A DNA stretch of 64,000 nt from an uncultured Gammaproteobacteria bacterium (GTDB lineage: Bacteria > Patescibacteriota > Microgenomatia > CAYQLK01): NCBI GenBank assembly GCA_964445355.1, contig CAYUKQ010000004.1:1028-65027 (forward strand), read 5' to 3'. Under the pieces are notes generated by a model. The model was not told the DNA's origin, did no database searches, and saw nothing but the letters and a program-made list of their open reading frames with translations. A program made the position numbers and the translations under genes. Shown piece after piece: positions 35,988-63,708 of the stretch. The stretch's first letter is position 1, and every line of letters starts with the position of its first letter.

Positions 35988-36400
35988 GGTGTTTGATTGT
36001 CGAGTACAAGATTTGCTTGAGTGTCAGCCTCGTGATTCAGTTCACGTGGAATGTGTTGATAAGTAACGCGAGCAAACATGTTTTCTAATTGTTTAATTTT
36101 AATAAAGAAATCTCGAAGATTTGTGTTTTTAATTTTATACCTTCCGGATAGTTGTTCGACTGCAAGTTTGGAGTCAAGTTTAAAATTGAGAGTGGTCTGA
36201 TTACAGTTACTGTCGAGCATAACGACTTTTTCAAACGCTTCAATAATTGCAGAATACTCAGCTGTGTTATTGGTTGCGACACCGAGAAAACTGCCTCCTG
36301 AAAATATGGTTTCGTGAGAATTTTTAATTACAAACCCTGTTGATGCCGGTCCGGGATTTCCCCGACTTGCACCGTCAGTAAAAATTGTTAGCTCTGTCAT
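35984..36400 (-). CDS. rnhA: ribonuclease HI
   Basis: TDGASRGNPGPA...NNTAEY...HIPRELNHEAD catalytic motifs. Confidence 0.85.
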   Translation of the reverse strand: MTELTIFTDGASRGNPGPASTGFVIKNSHETIFSGGSFLGVATNNTAEYSAIIEAFEKVVMLDSNCNQTTLNFKLDSKLAVEQLSGRYKIKNTNLRDFFIKIKQLENMFARVTYQHIPRELNHEADTQANLVLDNQTP

Positions 36401-41057: not shown

Positions 41058-41156
41058 TTTCCACATGCAACCAAATGCTTGACGATGTGTGGATAAATGC
41101 AATATATTCATATGGCGTTTAAGTGGAAATCAAAACTGTTTGCCCAGTTATTCACG
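41058..41156. promoter_or_regulatory. DnaA-box cluster upstream of dnaA (origin/autoregulatory region)
   Basis: TGTGGATAA at 41088-41096 is a perfect reverse box. TTTTCCACA at 41058-41066 and TTATTCACG at 41148-41156 are near-consensus. Confidence 0.6.
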
Positions 41157-41209
41157 AAAACAAAACACCTCCAAACAAACTATTGGTTGTAGACAAAAAG
41201 ATTAAATCA

Positions 41210-43973: not shown

Positions 43974-44294
43974 TTGGGTCGTATGGCGGGTTTTGAAAAA
44001 GTAGATAGTCTGATTAAGCAGTTTCGTTTTAATAGCACCGAAAAACGGGCATTGGGGGCCTTACAGGTGGTTTCTAAATCTCAACCGGTGGTTGATAAAT
44101 GGGTAAAAAATAAATACGGAGAAAAAATCGTGGTTAGAGTGTCGCAGTTTAATGACGGAAAATTAGTGTTACTGGTAGGTAATGTTGTGGAGTTGGTTGA
44201 AATAAGAAAAAATGCTGAAGGGTTAAGAAGAAGGTTGAATCGAGTTTTATCAAGTAATTTGATCAAATCGATCACGGTGCGAGTGGAAAGATAA
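43974..44294 (+). CDS. DUF721-family protein (DciA-like, dnaN-associated)
   Basis: 106 aa in the typical position after dnaN, with a DUF721-like pattern (GKLVLLVGNVVELVEIR...LRRRLN). Confidence 0.5.
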   Translation: MGRMAGFEKVDSLIKQFRFNSTEKRALGALQVVSKSQPVVDKWVKNKYGEKIVVRVSQFNDGKLVLLVGNVVELVEIRKNAEGLRRRLNRVLSSNLIKSITVRVER

Positions 44295-44297: not shown

Positions 44298-45314
44298 TTA
44301 GTTTGTTGCTTCTACGTTCAGAGTGATAAGGTATTCCTGATTATCTTTAGAGATTGCTGTGCCTGAGAATGTAAAGAAAGGGTAAATAGTTTGAGGGTTT
44401 TTGGTGGTTGGAAAAAAGTAGCTTGTTTGGACAGAAGTGATATTGATGTTTTTGTAGTTACTTGTGTAATAAGCTTCCTCCTCGTCTTTTGTTCCAGATA
44501 ATTTACGGATCTGTGTAATTGTGGATTGGTTTTTAGCTAGTTTGCTTACGGCTTGTTCCAGAGAAATTAACTGGACAGTGGTAGTGGGATTGTAGGTGAA
44601 TACAACAAGCGAAAAGCTGGTAATTGATCCTGATTTGTCGAAAGTAATTGAACCAACCGATGTGTTTGGGGTACGGTCTGTGGCCAAAAAAACCGTTTCG
44701 TGTTTGGTGGTAATGTCAAAACTGATCGTGTCAGCCAGATCAAAACTATCGACTGTTTGATCATTAAGATTGGTCGAGCGATAAAATTGCGGCGCAGAAA
44801 GTTGTAAGTTGGAATTATTACCCACTTTATTTAAGGTGTTTTGAGCTTGATCGGTAATTAGTTCTAGGGTAGAGATTTGCTGGTTGGTTTGGGGGTTGCG
44901 GTAAGTAATAGTAAGATCGTCGATCGTTAATGTTCTGTTTTGGTTAATGTAAACTTTTCGAGTGCCAAGGTCTGTTTGGAGTTCGCGAAAATCTGCTGGG
45001 TCGAAGTTGAACATATTTGCAATATTGTCGGAAGCGATTGGGGTTTTGGTAATCGATAATATTCCTAATGATTTCGGTGGAGTGTAACTGTAGACATCTG
45101 GGTCGATTTGGTATTTTTGTGGTTTATTTGCAAAGGGATCATTAACTGGTTTCGATGATTCAGGAATTGAACTGGTTTTGGTTGGTTCGGGCTTAGTTGG
45201 TTGAGTGTTTGGGTTGAATATTAAATAAAGAAAAATAAAGATTATTAGAAAGACACCAAAAAAGATAAATATCCAAAAATTCTTTAGTTTAGCCCTAAGT
45301 TGTGTAAGCGTCAT
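44298..45314 (-). CDS. membrane-anchored extracytoplasmic protein (hypothetical; last gene of the T4SS-like block)
   Basis: N-terminal TM followed by a T/N/Q-rich, beta-rich domain. Confidence 0.4.
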   Translation of the reverse strand: MTLTQLRAKLKNFWIFIFFGVFLIIFIFLYLIFNPNTQPTKPEPTKTSSIPESSKPVNDPFANKPQKYQIDPDVYSYTPPKSLGILSITKTPIASDNIANMFNFDPADFRELQTDLGTRKVYINQNRTLTIDDLTITYRNPQTNQQISTLELITDQAQNTLNKVGNNSNLQLSAPQFYRSTNLNDQTVDSFDLADTISFDITTKHETVFLATDRTPNTSVGSITFDKSGSITSFSLVVFTYNPTTTVQLISLEQAVSKLAKNQSTITQIRKLSGTKDEEEAYYTSNYKNINITSVQTSYFFPTTKNPQTIYPFFTFSGTAISKDNQEYLITLNVEATN

Positions 45315-45320
45315 ATATTT

Positions 45321-48300
45321 TTAGTTTACTGCAGCGCAACTGCCTGAACACCCCCGGACATCGACAGGAATGTATGGCGGCTCCATTCGGAGGCCTCGAA
45401 ATTCATAGTGAAGATGTGTGCCTCTAACATCAGGAGGAAGTATATATCCCGTGAATCCCTCATAACCAACTATTTGACCTTTAGTTATTACGGCTCCGAC
45501 TTCGATGCCTGGGCCAAACGAATCCATATGACCATAGATTGCTCTGAAGGATGTGCCGTTGCAGGTACCGCTTAGGATGACTGTTAAGCCGGTTCGGCCG
45601 GTGATCGGATGGTTACCAGCCGGATCTGTGTATTTATACTCAACAACTCCATTAAACGTGGCCAGTAAGCTATCGGTGTAGAAAGTAGCAACATCTATGG
45701 CTTCGAGAGATGAGTGTGAAACCAACCCTCCCGGTCCTTGTGTGACATTGCCTGATCCAGCCGCGGGCCAGCCCGACGGACAGTCTCCGGCGGGTGTGCC
45801 AATAAAGACTGATGAAAGGTCGTTTGCAGAGGAAGAAACCGAGTTGGTAAATCCTCCTCCAGGTGCCGGGATGGGGATTATGTTGGGGTCAAATGATTTA
45901 AAACTGATTGAAAATTTATTACTAATACTTGAGTCCTGAAAAATTGTCTCGTTCGGAATTGGAAGATCGTATGAAATACTGGCTGTTTGATTTGGATTGA
46001 GAGTGGTTGGACAGTTGATGGTTGGGCTGGTTAGGTTGCGAATATTTCCGGATTTAGTTACGTGGGTGATTGTATCAGTGCAGACAATATCGTAGATGGG
46101 TTGGTTTTGGGCACTAATATTGACAGTGTAGGTGACGGTTTGGGGAAGATCCGAATTTTCTAGTTTGATGGTTTTAGCGGGTCCGAGAGATTTAGCGTTA
46201 ACGCTGGCAAGCTTTTGAATTTGTATGTAAGTGTTTGATGTTTCACCTTCTGTAGCGTCACCAGGTAAAACGATTTGTTCCGGAAGGCTTGGGTTGGTAA
46301 ATAAAGCAGAAGAGACTGTGCTGTAGCTTAATATGGAAAATGTGGTAATACTCCCAACTGTGGCGGTCGGGATCAGGACAGCAGGGTTGGTTGCTACACC
46401 TACAAGTGCGTTAGTGCCACTGCTAACAAGTCCACCAATTGCTGATGCACCAGGAATTCCGCTAATAAAACCACCGACGGCCCCCGCAGCAGACCAGGTA
46501 AACGATGCAGCTGCTGCACCCGCCGACCAAATCGCTGAGGCTGCACCAGTGGCCCACCCTGAAACTGCCCCCCAAATCTTGGGAAGGTAAAACATAAGAT
46601 TATTAACAACTGTGGCGTAACCGGGGAAGTGGTTATAAAGCCAGACAGATGCTGTTCCACCAAGGAAACCGCCGATTAATGCACCTACTGGCCCACCGAG
46701 CGCGAACCCGATCGCTGCACCAACAGCGAATCCAACCGCAAAAGCGACGATGTTGGCAAGTATCCAAAGAAGGAACATGTAAGCGAGGAAAGCGAGGGTT
46801 GCGAGAATATAGGCGATCTGTTTTTTGTATTTTGCTGCCAGCATTAACCCGGCCTGCACAAGCAGCGAAATACCTCCGGTGCCAGCGCCGACGGCTGCAG
46901 AAATACCCAGTTTTGCTCCAACTTTTAGTGCGCCTTTTTTAGCAAATCCTTTGAGTTTGCCTTTGGCCCGACCGGCTGAAAATTTTTGTGAGAAGGAGAA
47001 AAATGATTTTTTTGGTATAAAATTGGCCGATCGAGTGATGGTTTGTCCGGCGGGGCTTTGAGAATAGTATGAACGGGAAAAATTACCCATTCTCCATACA
47101 GAATGTTTTTTGGGGGCATTAAACTCTGGAATCTGTTCATATAATTCCAGTTCGTCAGAGTAGTTTTTTAGGAGAATGGATTGACCAACGCTTATAGATT
47201 CCTGCTCATTTATTTCCCGAATCGATCTGGACAAAAAGGATCTTCTCTCTGGATTAGGGTTAAGACTTGCGGACAAAAACTCTTCATAACTTTGCTGTTG
47301 TCTTTTAGGATTATCCATGAGCGAGGCAAATGCGTGATTTTCGGCGGCGGTGATTTCTGAAGATTCAGCCTGATATTGTCCTTGAGAGTAAATATTGACA
47401 GGCTGAAGAATTTCGTGACTGACGACATCGGTAACGAAGCGGGGGGCTGCTAAGGTAAGAAGTGTTTTGTCGTCAAGTTTTGAGTCGAGGTGTTTGAGGT
47501 AATTCTGGTAGCTGTTTTCTTCTGCGGAGCGAAGATTCTGAAGGAGACTTTGTGGGTTAAGAGGGATGTTCTTATCAAAATCTTCCTGTGTGTTTTGAAT
47601 GATTTGATTGGCAATGTTGGGTAGGTATATTTGGTGAATTGCTTCAGAGATAATTTGTTTGTTTTTTGCTGTAGCTGTTTCCGGGTTGATTTTTAATCCA
47701 GTGTCGATTGCTTTGTCGATGATTTGTGAGTGTGTTGATGGAGATGATTGGGGATCGGCTAGTGTGGAGATTAGGAGAATTTGTGATGCGGTATTGGCTT
47801 GGGTTACCGCTGGATGATTGGTTTCAGATACTTGGTCGACTGCGACTAAAAAGTCATCAGACTTGGTCAATTTTTTGGCGCCGTCTGTGGTCTCGGGTTC
47901 TTTGAGCGAATGTTCGTAGATTTCCGACGCCAAAACGGGCGACAATTCCTGGTAGTCGGCTGTGTGAGTGGAATAAATGATCTGGGTCGCGACATTGTTG
48001 GCGATTTTTCCAGCGATACGTTGTTGGTTGGCTGCGTCGATTTTGGCCTTGAACAGCGTGGCTGAGATGGCTGGTGATTGGATAAGTTGAGTGATGGCGT
48101 TGGTGAGTTCGGTGTGTGTGAGTGTGACTGTATCCTCGAGTTTTTTAGTTGTGGATCTGGTCGAACTTGATGAAGGTTTTGGATTAGCTGGCTCACCAGA
48201 TTGTTTTGAGGGTGATTTGGAGCTATTGTTGGGCAGGGTAATAATTCGAGTGGTCGTTTGGGGTAAGGTAATGGGTTGCTGGATCGGTAGGGGGGCGGTT

Positions 48301-48836
48301 GGGTTTACTGATTGAGGTGTTTGGGTCGTGGGGATTGGATTAGTAATCTTAATTGTTTTTGGTAGTTCGATAGGGGTGGGAGGGGTTTGGTTATTTTGTC
48401 GAATTTGTTTAATAGCGTTGTCGACTTCTTCAATAACCCCAGCGCTGCTAAGTGTGCGTGTTTGGGTTGGAGAATCCGGGTTTTGGAGTTTGTGAATAAT
48501 AGGAATGACAGATTGGTTGGTTAGTTCAAACTCTTTTAGATTGGCTTGAATTAGGGTGGTAAAGATTTGTTTAAGGACAAGGATGTTTTGGCCGATGTTT
48601 ATAATTTCGTATTTGTCGGCAATATTCTGGATAGTGATTAGCGTTTGTTCATAGCTTGCGTCTGGGAATAAATCTTTGAATTGTTCGTTAAACTCTTTCT
48701 CGCTTGGGAAGCGGGGTGGTTGACCGTCTTTGGGTGATTTTTCAAAAAAATCTAAAACCCAATCAGCTAAACGAAATTGGAGTAATTGGTCAATGGCGGT
48801 TTTGGGTTTGGATGGTTCAACCTGACTTGTTGACAT
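45321..48836 (-). CDS. giant polytopic membrane protein with a C-terminal M23/LytM peptidase domain (PrgK-like T4SS-associated cell-wall hydrolase candidate)
   Basis: 1171 aa with a P/T/Q-rich N-terminus and a central Gly/Ala-rich multi-TM region. The C-terminus has HxxxD...HLHYE (GYEGFTGY...GTHLHYEF). Confidence 0.6.
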   Translation of the reverse strand: MSTSQVEPSKPKTAIDQLLQFRLADWVLDFFEKSPKDGQPPRFPSEKEFNEQFKDLFPDASYEQTLITIQNIADKYEIINIGQNILVLKQIFTTLIQANLKEFELTNQSVIPIIHKLQNPDSPTQTRTLSSAGVIEEVDNAIKQIRQNNQTPPTPIELPKTIKITNPIPTTQTPQSVNPTAPLPIQQPITLPQTTTRIITLPNNSSKSPSKQSGEPANPKPSSSSTRSTTKKLEDTVTLTHTELTNAITQLIQSPAISATLFKAKIDAANQQRIAGKIANNVATQIIYSTHTADYQELSPVLASEIYEHSLKEPETTDGAKKLTKSDDFLVAVDQVSETNHPAVTQANTASQILLISTLADPQSSPSTHSQIIDKAIDTGLKINPETATAKNKQIISEAIHQIYLPNIANQIIQNTQEDFDKNIPLNPQSLLQNLRSAEENSYQNYLKHLDSKLDDKTLLTLAAPRFVTDVVSHEILQPVNIYSQGQYQAESSEITAAENHAFASLMDNPKRQQQSYEEFLSASLNPNPERRSFLSRSIREINEQESISVGQSILLKNYSDELELYEQIPEFNAPKKHSVWRMGNFSRSYYSQSPAGQTITRSANFIPKKSFFSFSQKFSAGRAKGKLKGFAKKGALKVGAKLGISAAVGAGTGGISLLVQAGLMLAAKYKKQIAYILATLAFLAYMFLLWILANIVAFAVGFAVGAAIGFALGGPVGALIGGFLGGTASVWLYNHFPGYATVVNNLMFYLPKIWGAVSGWATGAASAIWSAGAAAASFTWSAAGAVGGFISGIPGASAIGGLVSSGTNALVGVATNPAVLIPTATVGSITTFSILSYSTVSSALFTNPSLPEQIVLPGDATEGETSNTYIQIQKLASVNAKSLGPAKTIKLENSDLPQTVTYTVNISAQNQPIYDIVCTDTITHVTKSGNIRNLTSPTINCPTTLNPNQTASISYDLPIPNETIFQDSSISNKFSISFKSFDPNIIPIPAPGGGFTNSVSSSANDLSSVFIGTPAGDCPSGWPAAGSGNVTQGPGGLVSHSSLEAIDVATFYTDSLLATFNGVVEYKYTDPAGNHPITGRTGLTVILSGTCNGTSFRAIYGHMDSFGPGIEVGAVITKGQIVGYEGFTGYILPPDVRGTHLHYEFRGLRMEPPYIPVDVRGCSGSCAAVN

Positions 48837-48896
48837 TATTAACTAATAATAAACCTTGTTAGGCGAAATATTCCGAGGCTGTTTAACATAAGCGAG

Positions 48897-50759
48897 TTAC
48901 TGAATTATTTCCTGTGTGGCAGAAATTGGTTGCGAGTTGGTCTGATCTGTATCGGTTTGTGTAGTGCCGTCTATTTGGTTGGCAAGAATATCCTTAGGAT
49001 TGGACGTGACAAGCTTGTCTTCGTTTGGTGAGGCAATAACGCGCATTGCCACGTGTGAGCTACCGGCGAAAAACAATCCTTCACCAACGTCGGCACCGAG
49101 CAATAGGTGTTTTTCCCCATCAGTTAGGTAAAAGACTTCTGCAAGCTTGTCGATTGCCGCCGCAGACTGTTTGAGTAGTATTTGAATACTTGAGTTGGTA
49201 ACAATCGCCTTTCCGTATTCAGTACTGAGGAAGTCTTCGACATCCTGAGTAATGGTTGTTAATCCAAGGTAGTATTTGCGTGCACGCTTGGCGATCGAAT
49301 ACATAAAACTCGCGGAATCCGGATATTGCATCATGTACCAAGCCTCGTCGACGATGAGAATGCGTCGTTTTAGGTCTCTTTTTACTCTGGTCCAGATAAA
49401 ATCAAGAATAATGTACATGGCGATTGGGCGAAGTTCGGCTTCGAGGTTTTTGATCCCAAATACAGTAAAAGTATTACGTAGGTCCATATTAGAATATTGG
49501 TCAAAAATTCCAACCAAAGATCCTTTGACAAATTTTTCAATTCTTTCTGCAAGTGTTTTGGCTTGTGGTTCTTCCATGCCGATTAATACTTTGTATAAGT
49601 CTTCCATTAGCGGAGGTTGAAGTGTTTGTGTTTGAGGACTGTCAGCAACGATACCTTTGTTTTTGTAGGTTTGGACAAGTGCCCGATCCAGGATTGCGTC
49701 TTCGGTGGCGGATAGCTGTCCCATAATGACGCGGAATAAGCCGTGCAGTGAGAGGATTTTGAGTCCTAGTTCGTTTTCTTCTTCGTACGTTCCTGAGAGG
49801 TCGAAGGGGTTGATCTTGGTGTCGGACTTGAAATCGAAACTGATATATTCTCCGCCGATGGCGTTGCAGAGATTTTTGTACTCTTCTTCAGGGTCAATAA
49901 TGATGATTTCTGTGCCGAACATTAAATATCTTAAAGCTTCGAGTTTGGTCATGTAGGATTTTCCACCTCCGGATTTGGCAAAAACGACGGTGTTAGCGTT
50001 TTCTAGACTGAAACGATCAAAGATGATGAGTGAACCGTTGTGTTCATTAAGTCCATACATGATCCCCTCGTTGCTGGTTAAAGAGCTTGAAGTGAAAGGA
50101 AAGGTTGTTGCCAGTGAGGTGGTATCCATGTTGCGAGTAACAAGTAGTTTGTCGTGACCGTAAGGCAGGGTTGTTTTGAAGCCATCTTCCTGTTGTAGTG
50201 TGGCGTGTTTGGAGATAACTAAAATAGAACCTAACAGACTCTCAACCTGTTTAGTAATATTTACCAATTCCTCTTTGGTTTCTGCAGGGATGGTGATGTA
50301 GAGTCCAAATTGGAAGAATTTTTCTGCACCTTTGGCGATATTCTGCTGGAAGGTTCGAGCGTCATCAAGTGTAACCTCAAGGTTTGGGTCAATGATCTTG
50401 CCGCGCTGGACGTCCGTGGAGATCGTGGCTTCCATTTCGCCGATTTTGCGCTTCATGTCCTGAAGAACGGCTTGTGCGTCAACCGGATAGTGAAACATTG
50501 ATATTTCGAGTGTGTGGTTGAAATTGATTAATGGAGAGAGCCAGTTGGCGCCGACATAGCGCGGATAGCCAATTATAAAGAGTGTTTTGAAGTATGTTTC
50601 ACCAATTTTGATGAAGTCAAAGTCGACTTCAATGGCTGGTGGTGCAATGATATCGCGAACAGAAACCGTACCTTGCGCGACAGCTTTGGCTTGTGCTGAG
50701 ACTAATTCGGGAGCATTTTGAGGTGATTGGTTGGGATTTTTTTTGCCGAATAGTTTCAT
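48897..50759 (-). CDS. VirB4/TrsE/PrgJ-family type IV secretion ATPase
   Basis: KIGETYFKTLFIIGYPRYV...WLSPLINFNHTLEISMF is VirB4 N-region-like. Walker A (FAKSGGGKSY) and Walker B (ILIVDEAW) are present. Confidence 0.8.
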   Translation of the reverse strand: MKLFGKKNPNQSPQNAPELVSAQAKAVAQGTVSVRDIIAPPAIEVDFDFIKIGETYFKTLFIIGYPRYVGANWLSPLINFNHTLEISMFHYPVDAQAVLQDMKRKIGEMEATISTDVQRGKIIDPNLEVTLDDARTFQQNIAKGAEKFFQFGLYITIPAETKEELVNITKQVESLLGSILVISKHATLQQEDGFKTTLPYGHDKLLVTRNMDTTSLATTFPFTSSSLTSNEGIMYGLNEHNGSLIIFDRFSLENANTVVFAKSGGGKSYMTKLEALRYLMFGTEIIIIDPEEEYKNLCNAIGGEYISFDFKSDTKINPFDLSGTYEEENELGLKILSLHGLFRVIMGQLSATEDAILDRALVQTYKNKGIVADSPQTQTLQPPLMEDLYKVLIGMEEPQAKTLAERIEKFVKGSLVGIFDQYSNMDLRNTFTVFGIKNLEAELRPIAMYIILDFIWTRVKRDLKRRILIVDEAWYMMQYPDSASFMYSIAKRARKYYLGLTTITQDVEDFLSTEYGKAIVTNSSIQILLKQSAAAIDKLAEVFYLTDGEKHLLLGADVGEGLFFAGSSHVAMRVIASPNEDKLVTSNPKDILANQIDGTTQTDTDQTNSQPISATQEIIQ

Positions 50760-50766
50760 AGTTTGT

Positions 50767-51765
50767 TTAGCTTGTCGGAGATTTTAAGGCGTCTAAGGCT
50801 TTTAGAATATCAGGATCGATTGTTTCATTAGAGCTGGATGTGGGTGGTGTCTGACTAATAGCTGTGTTGCTGGTCGGTACTTGTTGGGGTGCCAAGTTGA
50901 AGGTTGATTGGTTGGCTATTGGTGAGTAGATTGTTTGGGTCGGTTCGGTTGGAGCCTGGTTGATTTGGGTAGTTTGAGGTTGTACTGGGGGGATATTTTG
51001 TATTGCCGGTTGTGGCTGATCAACAATTGGTTGTGCTGGGATGGTTGGGTTTTGGGTAATGGCAGCAGGTTGTGTAGGAAGTTCTTCGATCGGAGCTGAG
51101 ACTGCAGGCGTGACGATTGGTGTGGTGTAAGAGCCGGCCGCCTCGGTAATTTTTTGCAGACCGACCTCGCTAGGATTATAAATGTCGAAATACAATTCGA
51201 TAAGCTCTTGGGTGGTAAGCTGAAGTGTTTTGATGCCGAGTCTGCCAAATTGTTGGAATAAATGATCGCGTTTGGGATAGAGGTTGGTTTTGACGGTTTC
51301 GATATAAGTTTGCATATGGTTGCTGTCACGCTGGATGTTGCCGAGTGCGGCTCCTTTTACTCCGAGTTCAAGCGGATTAAATGGGATAATGACATAAAAT
51401 TTTTTTTCCAAAACGTTGTTTTGTTTAACAATTCCCTGGATGAACTGTAAGTATTCGTAAATTTGGCGTTTAATGTCTGGGTTGGCCTGGTGCGCTTCGG
51501 CTTGAGTAATAAGTTGGATGTAGGCGCTAAGATCGATTTTTTTGCTACGAATAACAATTTGTGTGGTGAAGTTTAGCGAGTTAAGCAGTCCCGCGTAAGA
51601 ATAAATAATCGAGTCCTGCTCATCGACCGAGAGTAGTTGAAAGTTGACGGCTGCGGTTTGGATGACGATGGCTGCTGAATTGTCCTTCAGAATTACAACA
51701 TCATCGCGAATATCAACAATCTCTAGATGTTCCTGGGTTGATGATTTAATCGGGGCAGATTTCAT
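50767..51765 (-). CDS. VirB4 N-terminal-domain-like protein with a P/Q/T-rich tail (possible split VirB4 partner)
   Basis: HLEIVDIRDDVVILKDNSAAIVIQTAAVNFQLLSVDEQ resembles the extreme N-terminus of Gram-positive VirB4/TraE proteins. Only 7 nt separate it from the ATPase gene. Confidence 0.45.
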   Translation of the reverse strand: MKSAPIKSSTQEHLEIVDIRDDVVILKDNSAAIVIQTAAVNFQLLSVDEQDSIIYSYAGLLNSLNFTTQIVIRSKKIDLSAYIQLITQAEAHQANPDIKRQIYEYLQFIQGIVKQNNVLEKKFYVIIPFNPLELGVKGAALGNIQRDSNHMQTYIETVKTNLYPKRDHLFQQFGRLGIKTLQLTTQELIELYFDIYNPSEVGLQKITEAAGSYTTPIVTPAVSAPIEELPTQPAAITQNPTIPAQPIVDQPQPAIQNIPPVQPQTTQINQAPTEPTQTIYSPIANQSTFNLAPQQVPTSNTAISQTPPTSSSNETIDPDILKALDALKSPTS

Positions 51766-51767
51766 GA

Positions 51768-53768: not shown

Positions 53769-54028
53769 GGTTATGGATTTTTAAGATTTTGCCTGCAAAA
53801 TTGTATGTTTGAGGTATTAAAAGTAGGGCAGGCTTATCTGGTTTTGGATTGTAGCAGAAAAAAATATAGGTTGCAGTGAAAAAAAGTGCGTGAAATTTTT
53901 GAGGCTAAATTAAATTGAATTTATTCGGCTAAATACTAATTTTTTGTGTCATGATAACGAAGCTAAATAAAATAACTATGGGATTACTAATTAAGGCTAA
54001 TAATGATATAATGGGGTATAGTTAATTT

Positions 54029-56311: not shown

Positions 56312-56335
56312 CTCCAAAAAGATTAAATTATTTCC

Positions 56336-58045
56336 TTATCTTCGATTTTCGTATGGGTTAGCGGTACGGTTGTTTTGCTGGGCGGCTCTTTGTGGGGTCG
56401 TGGTTGGTCCGGCTGGCCCCGGCCTACCTGGAGTGATCGGACTTGAAGCTCCTTCCTGACGGGACAGTCGGTCATATCTGCGCTGAGCACTCCATGGGTT
56501 GAAGGTATTGTTGAGTTTTTCCTGTCCAAAATCATTTACTCTGGTTTTGGCGCGACTAGCAGCACCATTGAAAGGTTGTCTGGCCATTCCCCATCCTGCG
56601 CCAGCGACGGCGCCAGCAGCACCGCCAATTGTTCCGCCAAGTCCACCGCCTTTGACTTTGAAGGCGTCTTGAGCGATCTTGGCTGCTGAAGGGATACCTA
56701 AGAGGATGCCAATACCAATAAGCGACTTAAGTGCGTTAGCGCCGTCTTCGTCAGTGAAGCCGCCCAGAAGTGGGGCATTCCAACCGTCGCCTTCAGTAAT
56801 TGTGGCTTCACCGGAGGTAATGCGGTCTTTGCCAACACCCATAAAATATGCAGCAAAAATAATCATCAGAATTGTAATAACAAAGGTAGCAAGTTGAGCG
56901 GCGATGTTGCGGATCCATGGACCAAAACCCGGCATGTTTGGCAGTACGCCGATACCGATCATGAGTGGACCAAAGATGGTGTAGAAAAAGACTTTTACGT
57001 AAGCGATCAGAAGCATGAAGAAGATACGGAAGGTTGCAACCAGCATCATAATGCCGATGACGGCGACGGCGAGCGCAGAAAGAATTTTGGAACTGAATTT
57101 TTCGATCAAGTCTGGCAAGCCGAATTGATCGATCGCTCCGCTGATAATGTCATCATTACTATTAAATATCCCGGAAATGTTTTTCAAAAAGAGATCTTTG
57201 AGCATAAAAGTAAAGACATTTCCTTCGTAATAAATATGATTAGAGTCGGCTTTGGCTACATTTTCGCTAGAGAGGATTTGGATCATGATGGCGATAAAAA
57301 AATTCATAAGATCGATCATTAGACCGACGATGGCATAGCTGAAGGTAATTAGAATTAAGCTAATAATGATTTTCGGAAGGACGGCTTGGATCGAAGCAAC
57401 GGAATTTGAGTTAAGGCGTTGTCTAAAAATGATCATGAAACCAATAATGATGAAAAAGATGACGTATAGAAGTAGGGTAAGGTTGCGAAAAGTGGTCCAA
57501 AGCGCTTGAGTTGGTTTCAGTCCGTCGTAGCCGCTTTGGGCGGCTAAAGTTTCTCCGGTGATTTTGGATTTGATATCCGCAATATATTGAACCCCAGAGG
57601 CTGGTTCTTCGGTATAAAGCAGAGAAATACTTTTCATTAAAAACGGTATTGCGGCGGCAGGTTGACAGTCGGTGGCGCCTGAGTTGATACATTCAAGTTC
57701 TTCATCGGTAGCCGGCAAGCCAGTGATTTGGCGGTTAATGCCGTAAGCGAGGTTATCCATTAGTCCGAGATTGAATTTTTGAAGGTTTACATCCTCTTCA
57801 TCAAGGGCATTTTTGTACTGACAGATAGATTGTTGGTAGGGCTGGACGGTTTTACCTACGCCCTGTTGGGGGTTTGAGATCGCGGAGCTGTCTGGACCGG
57901 CTGGAGCTGCGGATCCGGAGTCGGTTTCACATTCAAAAGGATCTTCTACTTGGGCTTGGGCGTTTTTGAGGCTGAAAAAGACGGTAAAAAGGGTGAATAT
58001 TGCAATGGTGGACAGGACAAGCTTAAGTCGCATTAGTTTAGGCAA
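56336..58045 (-). CDS. VirB6/TrbL-like polytopic type IV secretion channel protein
   Basis: Signal peptide, about 6 TM helices and a C-terminal Gly/Pro-rich tail, next to VirB4-like genes. Confidence 0.55.
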   Translation of the reverse strand: MPKLMRLKLVLSTIAIFTLFTVFFSLKNAQAQVEDPFECETDSGSAAPAGPDSSAISNPQQGVGKTVQPYQQSICQYKNALDEEDVNLQKFNLGLMDNLAYGINRQITGLPATDEELECINSGATDCQPAAAIPFLMKSISLLYTEEPASGVQYIADIKSKITGETLAAQSGYDGLKPTQALWTTFRNLTLLLYVIFFIIIGFMIIFRQRLNSNSVASIQAVLPKIIISLILITFSYAIVGLMIDLMNFFIAIMIQILSSENVAKADSNHIYYEGNVFTFMLKDLFLKNISGIFNSNDDIISGAIDQFGLPDLIEKFSSKILSALAVAVIGIMMLVATFRIFFMLLIAYVKVFFYTIFGPLMIGIGVLPNMPGFGPWIRNIAAQLATFVITILMIIFAAYFMGVGKDRITSGEATITEGDGWNAPLLGGFTDEDGANALKSLIGIGILLGIPSAAKIAQDAFKVKGGGLGGTIGGAAGAVAGAGWGMARQPFNGAASRAKTRVNDFGQEKLNNTFNPWSAQRRYDRLSRQEGASSPITPGRPGPAGPTTTPQRAAQQNNRTANPYENRR

Positions 58046-58088
58046 GTATAGTTAGTATTTTATGCTTAATTAGTACTGATTTGCAAAA

Positions 58089-59273
58089 CTATTCCTTGCG
58101 AACCTCAATATCTCGTGGGGTGATTGTGCGCAGAATAATTTCTTTGGCTGTTTGAACACCACCTAGATATCCGGCCCAAACCTGATTGCTGGAGCCAAAA
58201 CCTTTAAGTCTGGTTGAGGCAGTGTCGGAAAATTCGCCTGAATTATGCTGGTTCCAGAAGTCCCCAGGACCAAATAATCTTAGACCGCCTGATTTTTTGC
58301 GAACAAGCGACTTCCATACAACATCAACGTAAGGAATTCGTGAGGAAATAAGTGAGCCGTTTTTGGTGAACTGTACAGATTCAGCAGCAGAGCCGGAGGC
58401 AGTGTAGAGGATAATATATTCCTCTCCCGGACCTTCACGACCTTCAGGTTTGGCAGGATCGGGGTTGAAATCTTTGGATTCTTTGACCAGGTCGTTAGGT
58501 GTAGTGACTTGCTGTAGTATCTGTGAAAGTGCAGCAAGTCTCGCAACTGAAGGTACGCCAATCAATAGATCCCTGCCTGGCTGACAAGACTCCGATTTGT
58601 CTTGATTGTCCGAGGTTGAAGAGATACAACCACGAGATGTCCAGTTGGTGACCAGAGGAAATTTTGCCCAGTACCTTCCCCATGTTTGATTCCAGGTTTC
58701 GTTTGATACTCCACCCTCAAGTCCCGGAGGTTGGGGTTTGCCCCAGGCGTCATAAAGATCTTTGATCGTTCGATAGTGTTGTCCGCAGTAGTCACCGTAT
58801 TCAGCAGCAGCTTCTTCGAGTTTGGTTGTGCCGTTTTTGGAAAGCTGATAAATAGTTTCAACGTATTTTTGTCTTAATAGATCGATGTTATTTTTGGGAA
58901 GGACTTTGATGAGTGGGCCGTTAAAATTGTTAAGCTCGTTGTTGGTGAGTTTTGAGAGGTCGGTTTTGCGATGTGAGTCGGTTTGAAACTTGCCTTCTAG
59001 ATAATTAGCCATTGAGCGCGCAAAAGGCAGAACAGGCTTATTGACTACAGCAGATACCCCCGAGGCGTTGACGACTGCACGTGGAGGCTGGTAGTCGTTT
59101 TCTGATTTGTTTTCGAGCTCATTCCAGCTAGGTATTTGATAAGTTGGGTTAGTACTATCCGGTGGCGCAGGTTGAGTACAAATTTTTGGTGGTGCCGCAA
59201 AAGTGTTTTTTGGAAGGAAAAAGAGTGTACTAGTTAAGCTTAGACAAAGACTTAGGCAGAAAAGTTTTTTCAT
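58089..59273 (-). CDS. secreted Cys-containing protein (hypothetical T4SS-associated)
   Basis: Signal peptide (LTSTLFFLPKNTFA) and several Cys residues. No family recognised. Confidence 0.4.
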   Translation of the reverse strand: MKKLFCLSLCLSLTSTLFFLPKNTFAAPPKICTQPAPPDSTNPTYQIPSWNELENKSENDYQPPRAVVNASGVSAVVNKPVLPFARSMANYLEGKFQTDSHRKTDLSKLTNNELNNFNGPLIKVLPKNNIDLLRQKYVETIYQLSKNGTTKLEEAAAEYGDYCGQHYRTIKDLYDAWGKPQPPGLEGGVSNETWNQTWGRYWAKFPLVTNWTSRGCISSTSDNQDKSESCQPGRDLLIGVPSVARLAALSQILQQVTTPNDLVKESKDFNPDPAKPEGREGPGEEYIILYTASGSAAESVQFTKNGSLISSRIPYVDVVWKSLVRKKSGGLRLFGPGDFWNQHNSGEFSDTASTRLKGFGSSNQVWAGYLGGVQTAKEIILRTITPRDIEVRKE

Positions 59274-59292
59274 TAAAATTCGTCACAAGGTT

Positions 59293-59706
59293 TTAGATGT
59301 TGCATAGGGTACCTGCCGGAGTGTAGTTGAGCAGGTTGATGCCTGTTACTAATTCAAGCGATTTGAAGATGGCATATACAAGCAAGAGGACCACGACTCC
59401 GATGAGTGCGGTTGTGATTGCGCCGCGAGCTTGGCCGGCGCCACCTGGATTACCGAAGGAGAAAATATATTTGTACCCAGCGTAAATGAGCATCAGGAAA
59501 AAAGCGATCCCTGCGGCCGGGGCAATGATCTTGATCGTTTTGGCGACGATCCCGAGCAAATCACAAAGCTGCGATGGGGTTTCGCTATCGCTACCGCCTC
59601 CTCCGGGTGGACCGCCACCTCCGGTACTGGCGGCGAAGGCTGTTTGACTAACTAAAAGCAGTAAGAGGACATAAACAATTGTGATTGAGAGCGCTCGATA
59701 TTTCAT
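59293..59706 (-). CDS. pilin-like small membrane protein, paralog 1 (signal peptide plus two-TM hairpin)
   Basis: Signal peptide, a Gly-rich segment and two TM helices separated by the loop FSFGNPGGAGQARGAI. Confidence 0.5.
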   Translation of the reverse strand: MKYRALSITIVYVLLLLLVSQTAFAASTGGGGPPGGGGSDSETPSQLCDLLGIVAKTIKIIAPAAGIAFFLMLIYAGYKYIFSFGNPGGAGQARGAITTALIGVVVLLLVYAIFKSLELVTGINLLNYTPAGTLCNI

Positions 59707-59821
59707 AAAAACTAACTCTTATTAAGAATGATACCAATAACTAATGACTTAAATCCAAAACAATACCGGTCGGGAACGAAATCCGTCCAGACCGATATGT
59801 TTTTTGGGAGTAAAACAATTA

Positions 59822-60202
59822 CTAATTTCCAAGAGTAGGAATAGTAAAGTTGTCTCCAGTAATAATGCTGACTCCGAGAATAGCTTGGACAAGCATAATT
59901 AAGGCTAAGGCCAAAACTACAACCACCAAACCTACGAGTGCGTGGATTACTTGCTGTCTGGCGGCGTTGACTTTTCCTGGATCACCACTTGAGAGGATCC
60001 ACTTGATACCACCAATGAGTAACCAAATAAAAGCAATAAGGAATGCGGCAAAAATAATAGCTTTAATGACGAAACTTAGGATCGCGCCAGGTTCGGCGAC
60101 GTTAACGCTGTATGGGTTGAGGTTGATTTCGTCTGCTAAGACGTTGCTTGTCGCGGCAATTGTGCCAGCGACTGACGAGGCTGCGGCAATTAACTTTTTT
60201 AT
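59822..60202 (-). pseudogene. pilin-like paralog 2 with ATA at the expected start codon (non-canonical start or point-mutated pseudogene)
   Basis: Hand translation gives (I)KKLIAAASSVAGTIAATSNVLADE...LIGGIKWILSSGDPGKVNAARQQVIHALVGLVVVVLALALI...GN*. It has the conserved loop motif and a signal-peptide-like N-terminus but no ATG, GTG or TTG. The SD (AAAGGGGGTGA) sits 9 nt upstream of ATA. It is absent from the ORF track for this reason. Confidence 0.4.
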
Positions 60203-60226
60203 AACGACTCACCCCCTTTCAAGGTT

Positions 60227-60676
60227 TTAAAACGGAAGCGTTGGGTTTGTAATTGATCCCGCGTCGAGAGTGAAGACCTTTTCGACCAGGGTCAGGATCG
60301 AGAATGCGAGAATGATAACTACCAGTCCGACGATTGCGTAAACGATCTTTTTTTGAGCGGCGGCGGTTTTGTTTGGCTCGCCGTTACTGGTAATGTAGTT
60401 GATTCCGCCGATTAACAGCCAGATAAAAGCCATAAGGAATCCGGCAAAAATCAGAATCTTAATGAAAAAAGTAATTAGCGTCCCGACTTGGGATGCCTCT
60501 GTGGGAATACCGGCAGGCGGACAAATCTCACCGAGCGGGTTGTCGCTCGATCCTTGTGATCCGGTCGTGCATGCAGCGATCACGTTGACACTCGAAATAA
60601 TTAACATTGCGATTAAGCCTGGGAAGATAATAGCTAAGTGTTTGAGATTGTGTTGTAGTGATCTGAGCTGTTTCAT
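60227..60676 (-). CDS. pilin-like small membrane protein, paralog 3
   Basis: Loop motif LIGGINYITSNGEPNKTAAAQKKIVYAIVGLVVII. Confidence 0.5.
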   Translation of the reverse strand: MKQLRSLQHNLKHLAIIFPGLIAMLIISSVNVIAACTTGSQGSSDNPLGEICPPAGIPTEASQVGTLITFFIKILIFAGFLMAFIWLLIGGINYITSNGEPNKTAAAQKKIVYAIVGLVVIILAFSILTLVEKVFTLDAGSITNPTLPF

Positions 60677-60677
60677 T

Positions 60678-61100
60678 TTAAAGGTTGGGGTTATTGATAA
60701 ATAGTGCCTGTACTGTATACATTATCACAAAGGTCAGGATCATCACGACCATACCAACCACAGCAAAAGTAATGTTTTTGCGTGCGTCAGCGGCTTTGTT
60801 TGGGTCACCACCTGAGGTGATGAATTTGATACCGCCGATCACAATATAGACTAGGGTAAAAATCGCACCGAGACTAAAAATAATACCCAGAGCGACCGTG
60901 CCAATATCACCAACTGATTGAAAAGTTTCGGCTGGCTGGAATTCTTCGTTGATGTCCAGCCCCATAAGGCTAAGCGCTGAAGTGGGGATAATGGCGGTGG
61001 TCAAGATTTTTTTAAGTAACATAAACGTTAAGCACTGATTGGGAAATAAATGCTGTGATTGCCCAAGCAATGCAGATAATAATAAGACCGATAACTGCAT
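60678..61100 (-). CDS. pilin-like small membrane protein, paralog 4 (true start probably the internal Met, MLLKK...)
   Basis: Loop motif VIGGIKFITSGGDPNKAADARKNITFAVVGMVVMIL. The annotated start overlaps paralog 5. Confidence 0.5.
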   Translation of the reverse strand: MQLSVLLLSALLGQSQHLFPNQCLTFMLLKKILTTAIIPTSALSLMGLDINEEFQPAETFQSVGDIGTVALGIIFSLGAIFTLVYIVIGGIKFITSGGDPNKAADARKNITFAVVGMVVMILTFVIMYTVQALFINNPNL

Positions 61101-61344
61101 TGATAATCATGGATTTTCCTCCAGAAACACTGTTGGGGTTGCCGCCGCTAATAATGATGCGAAAAGCACCGATCGCAATCAGAATAATTGACACCAGAAA
61201 GGCAAATGGGAATAAAAAATAGACCATCGCGTTACTGATAAAACCGCCAATTGAGTTAACAGCCCCGGTTTCGTCAGAAGTAATAGGGTTGCCTACTCCA
61301 GAGTTGCCGAGTTGGATGGCGATGTGTTTGAGTTCGTTGATCAT
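61012..61344 (-). CDS. pilin-like small membrane protein, paralog 5 (no obvious signal peptide)
   Basis: Loop motif AIGAFRIIISGGNPNSVSGGKSMIINAVIGLIIICIA. Confidence 0.45.
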   Translation of the reverse strand: MINELKHIAIQLGNSGVGNPITSDETGAVNSIGGFISNAMVYFLFPFAFLVSIILIAIGAFRIIISGGNPNSVSGGKSMIINAVIGLIIICIAWAITAFISQSVLNVYVT

Positions 61345-61350
61345 AGACAG

Positions 61351-61959
61351 TTATGGGGTTGGGTCATAAATATCTGACTGACTTTCGATACCGGGCAGAT
61401 TAAGGATGTTGGCACCGATTATTTCGAGGATAGATACAGCGAAGACAATAAACAATAGTCCTGAGATGGCAGAGATGATCATTTCACGGCCCTGGTTGAT
61501 TTTGGTAGGGTTGCCTGCAGAGGCGACGATTTGGACTGCACCAAAGCCAGCGAGAATAAAAGCAATAACTGCGGCGATCGAGATTGAGACTAGGAGAATT
61601 GTGGTAACGGTTTGCCCGCCACTATCACTAACGTCGAACTCTAAGATTCCTCCAATAGAACAGGTTGGTTTGCAGGGAATCGAGGAGTCTCCGCCAGACC
61701 CACCGCCAGTGGTTTCTCCGCTTCCTACACCTGCACCGCCAGCAAGGGCAGTTTCGCATGAAGCTTGTGAGCTGTAGTGAGGAAGATCACCTCCGAACGA
61801 GGCAGAAATACATTGAACTGTGCCGCCGACGTTACGAATAAACCAATAGGTGGCTGCATTGACCTCATTTGGTTTTTGATTAAGAGAGGAAAACAATAAA
61901 TTAGCAAGGACAAATATTGCCAGGATGAATGTTTTTCTGAACAGTTTAGTTTTGGGCAT
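61351..61959 (-). CDS. pilin-like membrane protein, paralog 6, with an extra Cys-containing extracellular domain
   Basis: Signal peptide, a 100-aa Cys/Gly-rich domain, then the conserved hairpin GFGAVQIVASAGNPTKINQGREMIISAISGLLFIVFA. Confidence 0.5.
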   Translation of the reverse strand: MPKTKLFRKTFILAIFVLANLLFSSLNQKPNEVNAATYWFIRNVGGTVQCISASFGGDLPHYSSQASCETALAGGAGVGSGETTGGGSGGDSSIPCKPTCSIGGILEFDVSDSGGQTVTTILLVSISIAAVIAFILAGFGAVQIVASAGNPTKINQGREMIISAISGLLFIVFAVSILEIIGANILNLPGIESQSDIYDPTP

Positions 61960-61977
61960 AGAAGGTATAATTTAACA

Positions 61978-63708
61978 ATGACAAAGTTCCCTGCCTGCAG
62001 TCAAGTTTTATTCAAACACTCAAAGCTATTCTTGATAAGTATTGTAATTACCGCGCAGATTTTTAGTCTGGTGTCAGTGAAAGTTGTATGGGGTTTGGAT
62101 TTAAATAATAGTGATGAAATCGCCAAGGAAATAGAGAAGCTGAGCAAAGATCTTAAAGCGAGTCAGGACGCAACAGTGCCTTTGGAGCAGAAGCTTAAGA
62201 GTTTGAATACCCAGATCACATCGATCCAGGGGAAAATTAATAAGTTCACGGCGGATATCAATAATGCGGAGAAACAAATTAAACAAAAAGAGGCTGATTT
62301 GGAAAAGCAAAAGGCGATTTTGGCTGCAACCGTGAGAAGTTATTACATTAAGACTTTTGTGGATACACCTTTATTAACATTGCTTTCTTCTAATAATGCG
62401 ACGGATGTAACAAGAGAGCTGACATTTAGAAGTAAGACGACAGATAGAGATAAAAATTTGATTGTAACGATCACTGGAGATATTAATGGTCTGAAAAAAG
62501 ATAAAGAGGATTTGGCAAAGGAAAAAACCAAGCTGGCCGGATTGCAGGTGTCTTTGAATAAAGAGGCTGATTTTTATGCCAAAGAGGTGGCAGGAGCAAA
62601 GAAATATCAAACCGATCTATCAAATCAAATCGCTTCATTGACCGCCAGACAGAACGAAATTATTGCCAGTAAGAGTGGTACATTCACTACCGGTGTTGGT
62701 GATGTGCCACTAGCAGATGATCCAAATGCAAGTGTGAACTTTAACCCCGGATTCTCAAAAGCATTTGCGGCATTTTCATTCGGCGCTTACACACATCGCA
62801 AAGGAATGAGTCAATATGGAGCTAAAGGCAGAGCTGATGCCGGTCAAAATTTTAAGACGATTTTAAGTAAATATTACGGCAAGGAGCCGAATGGTAAGGA
62901 TACCGGGGGAAACATTAAAGTATCTGGATATGGTGAGATGGATTTTGAAACAAAGTATTTGTATGGAATTGCGGAAATGCCCTCGAGTTTTCCAGAAGAG
63001 GCGTTAAAGGCGCAAGCGGTGGCAGCTAGAACTTATGCTTACCGGTATAAGAAGGATGGTTTGGAAATCTGCACGACCGAAGCTTGTCAGGTGTTTAATA
63101 AATCCAAGTCTGATAGTCCGCCGGATAAGTGGAAGAAGGCGGTGGATGATACTAAAGGACAAGTTATTGAAGATGTGGTGACGTATTACTCTTCAACAAC
63201 TGGTGGTTATTTGACGACCTCAGGCTGGGATACCGGTTGTGGTTCAAAAGATTGTTGGACAGGTGATGCTTTTGAAAAAAAAGCTAACAGTCCGTGGTTT
63301 TATAAAGCTTGGTATACGCAAAGTTATTCGGTTAGCTCAGATAAGTGCGGTAAGAGTAACCCTTGGCTGAATAACGAGGAGTTCTCGGATATTTTGAATG
63401 GGTATTTGCTGATCAATAATAATCACCCGGATTCCGGTAGAGTGACACCCGTGTCTTCCTGCTGGGGCGGATCACCTTTGTCGATGTCAGAGATGAGGGA
63501 GAGGGCCGGTCAGTATGGAGGAGCGTTCACTGCAGTTAATTCGGTGTCGGTAAGTTATTCAAATGACGGTTCTACGGCTAGTGTTACGATCAATAGTAAC
63601 CGAGGAACTGATACGATTTCAGGGTCAAAGTTCAAAGAGGCGTTTAATCTTAGGGCCCCGGGTTGGATTTCGATAAAATCTCCATTGTTTAATATCGAAG
63701 TAAAGTAA
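61978..63708 (+). CDS. SpoIID/LytB-domain protein with an N-terminal TM and coiled-coil
   Basis: N-terminal coiled coil and C-terminal SpoIID/LytB motifs (HRKGMSQYGAKGRA, AQAVAARTYA, YYSSTTGGY). Confidence 0.65.
   Translation: MTKFPACSQVLFKHSKLFLISIVITAQIFSLVSVKVVWGLDLNNSDEIAKEIEKLSKDLKASQDATVPLEQKLKSLNTQITSIQGKINKFTADINNAEKQIKQKEADLEKQKAILAATVRSYYIKTFVDTPLLTLLSSNNATDVTRELTFRSKTTDRDKNLIVTITGDINGLKKDKEDLAKEKTKLAGLQVSLNKEADFYAKEVAGAKKYQTDLSNQIASLTARQNEIIASKSGTFTTGVGDVPLADDPNASVNFNPGFSKAFAAFSFGAYTHRKGMSQYGAKGRADAGQNFKTILSKYYGKEPNGKDTGGNIKVSGYGEMDFETKYLYGIAEMPSSFPEEALKAQAVAARTYAYRYKKDGLEICTTEACQVFNKSKSDSPPDKWKKAVDDTKGQVIEDVVTYYSSTTGGYLTTSGWDTGCGSKDCWTGDAFEKKANSPWFYKAWYTQSYSVSSDKCGKSNPWLNNEEFSDILNGYLLINNNHPDSGRVTPVSSCWGGSPLSMSEMRERAGQYGGAFTAVNSVSVSYSNDGSTASVTINSNRGTDTISGSKFKEAFNLRAPGWISIKSPLFNIEVK

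Follow-up and report, generated by a model that had tools for sequence, protein, structure and literature searches.

The question raised by the locus described here is whether a set of genes resembling a conjugation apparatus belongs to a mobile element or to the cell itself and, if to the cell, what it might do there. The locus lies within 64,000 nucleotides of contig CAYUKQ010000004.1 (assembly GCA_964445355.1), a stretch referred to throughout as the window, and the organism is a Curtissbacteria-like member of the Microgenomatia, in the candidate phyla radiation (CPR). Between positions 44298 and 63708, directly beside dnaN, is a block of genes for a type IV secretion system (T4SS), which an earlier reading of the bare sequence (the original prediction) had taken to have a non-conjugative role rather than to be an integrative and conjugative element (ICE). 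The block is very probably a chromosomal, vertically inherited Patescibacteria-type T4SS derived from the monoderm MPF-FATA conjugation machinery, and it probably serves as a contact-dependent, non-conjugative link to a host cell. In other words, it is an ordinary member of the known Patescibacteria T4SS, published in 2023 and 2025, and its recognition in the window is an accurate rediscovery.

Of the 15 genes in the block, 13 are on the minus strand; ten or more consecutive and mostly co-directional genes had been counted before. Its ATPase is a VirB4-family protein of 620 amino acids (aa; 48897-50759, minus strand), with Pfam matches to P-loop_TraG (1.6e-30), AAA_10 and DUF87 and with both a Walker A (AKSGGGKS) and a Walker B (ILIVDE) motif. 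Its PDB sequence matches include the solved Thermoanaerobacter VirB4 (4ag5), at 3.8e-49, and TrwK/VirB4, at 1.8e-5. The NCBIfam profile conju_CD1110 (VirB4-like conjugal transfer ATPase, CD1110 family) gives 402 bits against a cutoff of 325, followed by the Mollicutes ICE profile at 258 bits, F-type TraC at 181 and VirB4_CagE at 119, and this ranking favours the monoderm conjugation types. The alignment with CD1110 spans profile positions 175-733 of 752, such that the first ~175 positions are absent from the protein. The missing N-terminal part appears to be supplied by the gene immediately upstream (50767-51765, minus strand), the 332-aa product of which, with a P/Q/T-rich tail, resembles a separately encoded VirB4 N-terminal domain: it matches NCBIfam TrsD at 1.7e-5 (positions 14-199 of 201) and VirB4_plasma at 4e-6 (positions 113-279), and also aligns to positions 13-124 of CD1110. 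The TraC-like family PF26593 is carried by its ortholog in L083, one of the close relatives (L083-85) that were added to the 80 related genome loci compared in this work. Among 85 loci, 77 have this TrsD-like gene directly upstream of virB4.

The third gene of this set encodes a PrgI/VirB3-like membrane protein of 666 aa (51768-53768, minus strand), in which residues 6-91 match Pfam PrgI at 1.4e-10 (42 bits, cutoff 27 bits) and two transmembrane-like segments lie at residues 21-39 and 48-66. The original prediction had named all three of these components, a VirB4/TrsE-family ATPase with both Walker motifs, a VirB4 N-domain-like protein and a two-transmembrane PrgI/VirB3-like protein, and the profile and structure-database matches bear it out in each case. 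Beyond its N-terminus the PrgI-like protein continues as a long, coiled-coil, low-complexity and P/Q-rich extension, so that its length in this lineage (654-679 aa) stands against a median of 282 aa over 70 related loci. A C-terminal match to a CarboxypepD_reg-like beta-sandwich is weak (7.9e-5, 23.4 bits, gathering score 32.3). With two transmembrane segments, the extension should share a membrane side with the N-terminus; if the topology of VirB3 holds, that side is the cytoplasmic one, where a beta-sandwich domain would be unexpected.

The family searches with profile hidden Markov models (HMMs) gave significant matches for VirB4, PrgI and Peptidase_M23, and none for the putative VirB6-like protein. 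The earlier proposal of a VirB6/TrbL-like polytopic protein consequently stands in part, by predicted fold but not by any HMM match. The gene in question (56336-58045, minus strand) encodes a polytopic membrane protein of 569 aa, for which searches of Pfam, NCBIfam and PDB sequences found nothing, a 50-sequence profile included. On that 50-sequence alignment AlphaFold2 (AF2) returns a model with a mean pLDDT of 72.8, rising to 85-95 in the membrane core, whose best matches among solved structures are TrwI/VirB6 and DotA, and on these fold grounds the protein is accepted as VirB6-like. Its family is large, with 7194 clusters at 50% identity in a profile search at E <=1e-3; no sequence bridge from it to TrbL/VirB6 is present among the best 150 matches listed. 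In related loci the gene of this family lies downstream of the pilin array where pilins are in range, as for example in L013 and L020. Homologs of VirB6 are reported to be scarce in Microgenomatia, with extreme divergence suspected as the cause (PMC12102498), and the predicted fold makes the 569-aa protein a plausible answer to that scarcity.

Upstream of the VirB6-like gene is an array of VirB2-like pilin genes, all on the minus strand. Five open reading frames (ORFs) between 59293 and 61959 match the family T4SS_pilin (Pfam PF18895, gathering score 26.6 bits), three of them above the gathering score. Pilin 1 (59293-59706, 137 aa, 8.7e-7) has a signal segment and two hydrophobic helices; pilin 3 (60227-60676, 149 aa) matches at 1.4e-7, and pilin 4 (60678-61100) at 4.1e-7. 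The longest ORF of pilin 4 has 140 aa, its likely start at 61022 giving ~114 aa, the length at which the ortholog in L083 is called. Pilin 5 (61012-61344, 110 aa; 5.7e-5, 23.5 bits) is below the cutoff and aligns with its paralogs, and pilin 6 (61351-61959, 202 aa; 0.004, 17.6 bits), also below it, has a long Gly-rich N-terminal part and shares the S-G-(N/D)-P motif found between the two hydrophobic helices. Identities to the first pilin are 18-27%. Pilin 1 also weakly matches, at 1.7e-4 and below cutoff, the NCBIfam Mbov_0395 family of pilin-like conjugal transfer proteins from Mycoplasma ICEs, a match which hints that monoderm (MPF-FATA) systems may after all have some VirB2-like pilins, which they are usually said to lack.

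The five PF18895 ORFs become six paralogous genes, the number originally predicted, with a further pilin frame, pilin 2 (59822-60202, 126 codons), which aligns with the other pilins and sits in the gap 59707-60226, where it opens 24 nt beyond the stop codon of the pilin gene before it. It is missed by ORF lists because it has no ATG, GTG or TTG start, and it is likewise skipped by the gene callers in L083 and L084. In place of such a start there is a Shine-Dalgarno-like AAAGGGGGTGA (60212-60222), then 6 nt, then ATA; the ATA is the same in L001 and L003, two metagenome-assembled genomes (MAGs) from different samples, and L083 has ATT. The frame is the best conserved of the array (85-91%), and between the window and L083 it shows 29 synonymous changes and one non-synonymous change (dN/dS 0.009). 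Sequencing error or slippage in the A-run can be ruled out, since the frame is kept in L001, L003 and L083, assemblies whose sources, as far as they are recorded, are different samples, since the A-run is broken in L083 (ATTAAAAAG), and since dN/dS is so low. Moreover, the ATT codon and the broken A-run of L083, in speaking against such artefacts, speak for translation: the sequence comparison argues for near-cognate initiation of pilin 2, at AUA or AUU. It follows that where gene callers miss a pilin started in this manner, published counts of pilins per array may be underestimates.

Six pilin paralogs, one of them under very strong purifying selection, invite the thought that the apparatus only assembles a pilus for adhesion, in other words that VirB4, VirB3 and VirB6 build a VirB2-like fibre and that nothing is translocated. 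VirB4 is indeed generally held to drive the extraction of pilins (cited in PMC12102498), and no substrate-recruiting coupling protein is nearby. This reading is nonetheless unlikely, in that Patescibacteria already adhere by means of type IV pili (PMC12857230, PMC12206443), a channel subunit with a predicted VirB6/DotA-like fold appears to have been retained, and a pilus belonging to this system has so far not been observed.

Two genes of the block encode enzymes that may open the cell wall. Immediately downstream of virB4 is the gene of a giant membrane protein of 1171 aa (45321-48836, minus strand), colinear in L001-L004, L006, L008 and L010; as had been proposed, its C-terminal part carries a Peptidase_M23 domain (Pfam, 6.1e-8, residues 1045-1147), in which the motif HLH is found at 1141; residues ~640-830 form a hydrophobic region rich in Gly and Ala. 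The protein, which we take to resemble PrgK, is the machine's candidate wall hydrolase, in the role of PrgK/VirB1. At the far end of the block is a wall enzyme of 576 aa with a SpoIID/LytB domain (61978-63708, plus strand; Pfam SpoIID 1.3e-20, TIGR02669 1.2e-27), comprising an N-terminal transmembrane segment and a coiled coil in addition. Its gene is divergent from the pilin array and is found at the same position in L082-L084, and the enzyme may be part of the machine or a mere neighbour.

All ORFs of at least 120 aa in the 64 kb window were scanned against Pfam, and among them is no relaxase, no VirD4/TcpA-type coupling protein and no integrase. Scans for tRNAs and Rfam families found no tRNA gene or Rfam family in the window, and no oriT-like inverted repeat is seen, the only two inverted repeats in the block being short, imperfect and inside coding sequence. 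The absence of a VirD4/PcfC coupling ATPase, relaxase, integrase and oriT-like repeats, as first described by eye, is thereby upheld. A scan of 44-64 kb for consensus promoters and terminators returned fewer sites than shuffled sequence and is uninformative. The continuation beyond the window end was read from the 93%-identical relative L083, exact matches to the SpoIID protein having given only contigs of 3.3-3.6 kb. There, the ~6 kb that follow SpoIID, reaching ~5.7 kb beyond the window end, hold a bPH-like gene, DUF5657, a phosphoribosyltransferase (PRTase)-like gene, an NHL-repeat protein and SmpB, and no relaxase, coupling protein or integrase is found among them. The PRTase-domain gene (2225-2899 of L083, minus strand), ~3.2-3.8 kb past SpoIID, has only weak Pribosyltran/PRTase matches.

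These findings bear directly on the possibility that the block is an ICE, or the remnant of one or of an integrated plasmid, beside dnaN, with its relaxase, coupling protein and integrase either lost or located outside the window. In its favour, VirB4, PrgI and TrsD have homologs among the proteins with which Gram-positive elements conjugate, and the GC content of the block exceeds that of the 40 kb upstream. Against it stand the lack in the window of an integrase, relaxase, coupling protein, tRNA target and repeats and, past SpoIID in L083, the presence of non-mobility genes only. Conservation among relatives points the same way. Homologs of VirB4 number more than 8000, the named ones belonging to Candidatus Curtissbacteria, Roizmanbacteria or the Patescibacteria group. 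The protein is 90% identical to that of L001 and 55-76% identical across Patescibacteria, to which all of its nearest homologs belong; in the same comparison with L001, DnaA is 80%, DnaN 84% and YidC 84% identical, VirB4 thus being better conserved than DnaA. The order PrgI-TrsD-VirB4 is kept wherever a locus reaches, TrsD-VirB4 being present in 77 of the 80 loci and the PrgI-like gene too in ~70, and the remaining loci being truncated where their contigs stop. The order virB4, dnaN, dnaA (with yidC beyond where reached) is seen in 21 of the 80, all of Microgenomatia type, and in 25 dnaA or dnaN is close to virB4. The complete block is colinear, including a plus-strand gene for a 760-aa protein described below, in L001, L003, L004 and L083-85; that is, in the close relatives recovered it is conserved and not specific to one strain.

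Plasmids offer no comparable relatives. Identity to plasmid-borne VirB4 proteins in PLSDB goes no higher than 38%, and the top plasmid relatives (30-38%) all come from Bacillota or Actinomycetota. By its family scores and neighbours, the VirB4 of the window appears to belong to the clade of Patescibacteria VirB4 proteins nested in MPF-FATA, a clade described as monophyletic and as showing only rare transfer between classes (PMC12102498), which is a further point against an ICE.

The remaining support for an ICE, the difference in base composition, appears on closer inspection to be a property of the region and not of a recent arrival. The impression by eye that the block is more GC-rich than the upstream 40 kb is correct as measured: windowed GC is 0.41-0.46 from ~44 kb on (0.42-0.46 from 45 kb) and 0.33-0.39 over most of the 40 kb upstream, where ~1-4 kb and the groEL gene are also high. 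GC at third codon positions (GC3) is 0.37-0.54 in the block and 0.30-0.39 upstream (yidC 0.43). The same step at the dnaN border is, however, found in L001, L003, L004 and L006, and the GC of VirB4 exceeds that of its locus in 75 of 80 loci. The tetranucleotide signature, normalised for base composition, correlates at r = 0.90 between the block and the upstream 44 kb, and single 4-kb windows of the block fall within the tetranucleotide range of the upstream windows. Recent horizontal acquisition as the cause of the step can thus be ruled out, the step being shared with relatives and the tetranucleotides native, and the block bears no mark of it. Taken together, colinearity, a VirB4 conserved above DnaA, plasmid VirB4 identities of at most 38%, the shared GC step and native tetranucleotides indicate that the block is, as far as sequence comparison can tell, an old and vertically inherited core locus of monoderm-conjugation ancestry, and an ICE in any of these forms is extremely improbable.

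Almost all of the GC excess of the block is due to additional G on the plus strand, which increases in frequency from 0.211 to 0.268; the C of that strand barely moves (0.163 against 0.169). Plus-strand GC skew, taken at four-fold degenerate sites, is +0.22 to the left of dnaA and +0.44 to the right, whatever the orientation of the gene. A codon preference for high GC3 is ruled out, for C-ending codons are enriched in minus-strand genes and G-ending codons in plus-strand genes, such that the bias follows the DNA strand and not the codon. The proteins of the block also contain more P, Q, T, S, A and G. The skew keeps its sign across dnaA, although the only perfect DnaA boxes in the whole window, three in number (41088, 42609 and 42621), flank that gene. 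Should replication underlie the skew, the fork would meet the minus-strand T4SS genes head-on, and the place of dnaA may not be that of oriC.

Comparison with the literature places the block within a described system. In Southlakia epibionticum ML1, Wang et al. (2023, Cell, PMC10633639) reported an essential T4SS cluster, SEML1_0006-0019, including an essential pilin array; its composition is Gram-positive-like, with no recognisable coupling protein or relaxase, and protein export or another non-conjugative role was suggested. A peptidase next to virB4 is essential there too (PMC12102498, PMC10633639). Subsequently, Quinonero-Coronel et al. (2025, Microb Genom, PMC12102498) surveyed 3,035 Patescibacteria genomes and found VirB4 in 2,417, with TrsD, PrgI/VirB3, VirB6 and VirB2-like pilins widespread. 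Pilins form arrays of 2-11, especially in Microgenomatia and Saccharimonadia, with ~25% mutual identity; M23-containing hydrolases lie near virB4, relaxases are almost absent, type IV coupling protein (T4CP) genes are rarely near virB4, and dnaA, dnaN, rnpA and rpmH are abundant near it in Paceibacteria and Microgenomatia (PMC12102498). For a FEMS review of 2025 the system is an established new addition to the T4SS superfamily (PMC12857230), and a search of the literature library found no later structural or functional work. The window shares with this system its VirB4, TrsD-like and PrgI/VirB3 components, the peptidase next to virB4, the divergent array of PF18895 pilins (with identities here that compare with the ~25% average of the survey), the lack of a relaxase and of a nearby T4CP, and the chromosomal position in the dnaA, dnaN, rnpA and rpmH neighbourhood. 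It differs in its class, Microgenomatia as opposed to the Saccharimonadia of Southlakia, in its long PrgI-like protein, in a VirB6 candidate too divergent for HMMs and recognised by fold only, in the lineage-specific 760-aa gene inserted between the operons and in the pilin that starts with AUA or AUU.

Wider comparisons are consistent with this placement. With the MPF-FATA monoderm systems (CTn2/CD1110, pCF10 Prg/Pcf and pGO1 Trs) the block has in common a VirB4 that passes the CD1110 cutoff, homologs of PrgI and TrsD, a large membrane-anchored wall hydrolase of M23/LytM type and the absence of outer-membrane core components. Unlike them it has no relaxase, T4CP, oriT or integrase, it has VirB2-like pilins, which Gram-positive systems lack according to reviews (PMC12857230), its VirB4 N-domain is split off and its VirB4 identity does not exceed 38%, and its locus is core chromosomal and conserved across the phylum. 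The Mollicutes ICE offers likenesses in its VirB4 (Mbov_0397), to whose VirB4_plasma family the ATPase and, in the N-terminal region, the TrsD-like protein align, and in Mbov_0395, like pilin 1; all of these scores are below the family cutoffs, and the Mollicutes genes reside in mobile ICEs. From Gram-negative machines, namely the R388 Trw VirB/D4 system and Dot/Icm, come the parallels of VirB2-type pilins with two hydrophobic helices and of the VirB6-like model, which superposes best on TrwI/VirB6 and DotA; the block differs from VirB/D4 systems in lacking VirB5, VirB7, VirB9, VirB10, VirB11 and VirD4, and its envelope is monoderm.

Relaxase-free machines derived from T4SSs are also known in archaeal Ced and Helicobacter ComB, both of which, like the block, have neither relaxase nor T4CP, and they suggest a different use, namely a dedicated machine for DNA import that would draw host or environmental DNA into a cell unable to make nucleotides. 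Uptake of host DNA or other macromolecules has been proposed for the Patescibacteria system (PMC12102498), comF occurs near the T4SS in the class ABY1 (PMC12102498), and the PRTase-like gene a few kb past SpoIID in L083, in which only a Pribosyltran/PRTase domain is matched, might conceivably resemble ComF. The VirB4 also weakly matches CedB (2e-10) and CedD (3e-6), but the scores, 39.9 bits against a cutoff of 700 and 26 bits against 600, are far below what these families require. Nor do CedA-like or ComB-specific components appear among the family matches of the block proteins, no search specific to CedA or ComB having been run. Deletion of comEC in Southlakia abolishes competence and not viability, while the T4SS is still essential (PMC10633639, PMC12857230), which means that the essentiality of the system is not explained by ComEC-dependent DNA uptake. 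A dedicated DNA-import role is thus quite improbable.

From the parts, whose identities, conservation and lack of mobility partners are observed, a mechanism can be inferred in which the cargo, the direction of transport and the pilus itself are conjectural. In this scheme the VirB4 ATPase, together with its separate TrsD-like N-domain, would dock on a membrane platform of the PrgI/VirB3-like and VirB6-like proteins; the platform would power the extraction of Sec-exported VirB2-like pilins and their polymerisation into a pilus or conduit, and possibly the passage of substrates; and the M23 peptidase, possibly with the SpoIID-type enzyme, would open the cell wall for the conduit. The outcome would be a contact-dependent link to the host cell, for the exchange of proteins or other macromolecules or for attachment. 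The absence of a relaxase and of a nearby T4CP, in a core locus found across the phylum, means that it is not a DNA conjugation apparatus. The contact-dependent conduit is rated most likely, above DNA import, adhesion by a pilus only and an ICE remnant. A non-conjugative role, as originally predicted, is thus supported by the HMM, structure and synteny tests and agrees with the published view (PMC10633639, PMC12102498, PMC12857230).

A bolder proposal, which we put forward only tentatively and think more probably wrong than right, is that the six pilins form one heteromeric VirB2-type pilus or conduit of fixed stoichiometry in a monoderm cell, as opposed to interchangeable variants for host range. 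The most conserved pilin (59822-60202) would then be deliberately translated at a low level from AUA or AUU as a minor, priming or tip subunit, and the machine would be an import conduit for host macromolecules.

Several considerations weigh against the reading of the block as a Patescibacteria-type conduit to a host cell. No VirB8-like component (PrgL/TraM/TcpC) is recognised by sequence in the block; in most Patescibacteria, too, surveys do not find one. By position and topology a candidate is the last gene of the virB4 operon (44298-45314, minus strand), which encodes a single-pass membrane protein of 338 aa with a transmembrane-like segment at residues 15-33 and has homologs at the same position in L001-L004, L006, L008, L010, L011 and L024; searches of Pfam, NCBIfam and PDB sequences gave nothing for this protein, and a 9-sequence profile of its family against the PDB gave nothing either. 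It is one of three block genes without an assigned role. The second encodes a secreted protein of 394 aa with an N-terminal signal-like segment (58089-59273, minus strand), lying between the pilin array and the VirB6-like gene, which has no family or PDB sequence match and has homologs in close relatives only, at 78-83% identity. The third is the soluble, all-helical protein of 760 aa (54029-56311), encoded on the plus strand between the two T4SS operons on the opposite strand. Its homologs fall into only 19 clusters, at the same position in close relatives (the gene is in the same place in L001, L003, L004 and L083-85); there is no family match in Pfam or NCBIfam, and its AF2 model (pLDDT 67) resembles no PDB fold in a meaningful way, the best probability being 0.21 and that of the top-ranked match 0.11, all with generic helical repeats. 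A substrate or regulator particular to the lineage is conceivable, as is an insert unrelated to the system. Furthermore, the clade placement of VirB4 was made by score ranking and nearest neighbours, not by a phylogeny. A VirD4-like coupling protein may be encoded elsewhere in the genome, as such genes occur in most Patescibacteria genomes, usually far from virB4 (PMC12102498). Finally, the experimental demonstration of essentiality comes only from the distant relative Southlakia (PMC10633639), which is outside the Microgenomatia.

On the left flank of the block are dnaA (41123-42586) and dnaN (42832-43962), both on the plus strand, and between dnaN and the block is a small DciA-like ORF (43974-44294, plus strand). 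The adjacency to dnaN noted at the outset is thus confirmed, while the DUF721/DciA label of the intervening ORF is weak (E 0.099). Most of what else the window codes for is conserved and cellular, although several ORFs have no assignment; examples are UvrD/AddA-type helicases, PBP1, MetRS and another class I tRNA synthetase, GroEL, TsaD, YidC/YidD, a Jag-like protein, L25 and polysaccharide genes. Further envelope genes lie upstream (18307-19942, 25633-27435 and 32632-35361), among them a PEGA+SH3 protein, a VanW/PG_binding_4 protein, a second, small M23 peptidase (19187-19942) and a DUF4012 protein of 909 aa, and an RNase H-like RVT_3 gene is located at 35984-36400. As to the naming of the relatives, L001-L004 and many other MAG records titled 'uncultured Gammaproteobacteria bacterium' or 'Pseudomonadales' carry the CPR-type locus; their dnaA-dnaN-T4SS synteny and 87-90% VirB4 identity to the window indicate that these MAGs are Patescibacteria, and the titles look like placeholders or mislabels.

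The additions made here to the known system are small: a fold-based VirB6 candidate for Microgenomatia, a conserved sixth pilin that would start with AUA or AUU, and a strand-asymmetric GC excess. Their use lies in the provision of a clean Microgenomatia example with a full parts list, and with a VirB6 candidate from predicted fold where HMM surveys had found VirB6 scarce. Only a few machines have been shown to be essential to the ultrasmall Patescibacteria in their epibiotic life, the Patescibacteria T4SS being one, and the window adds another member to this system.

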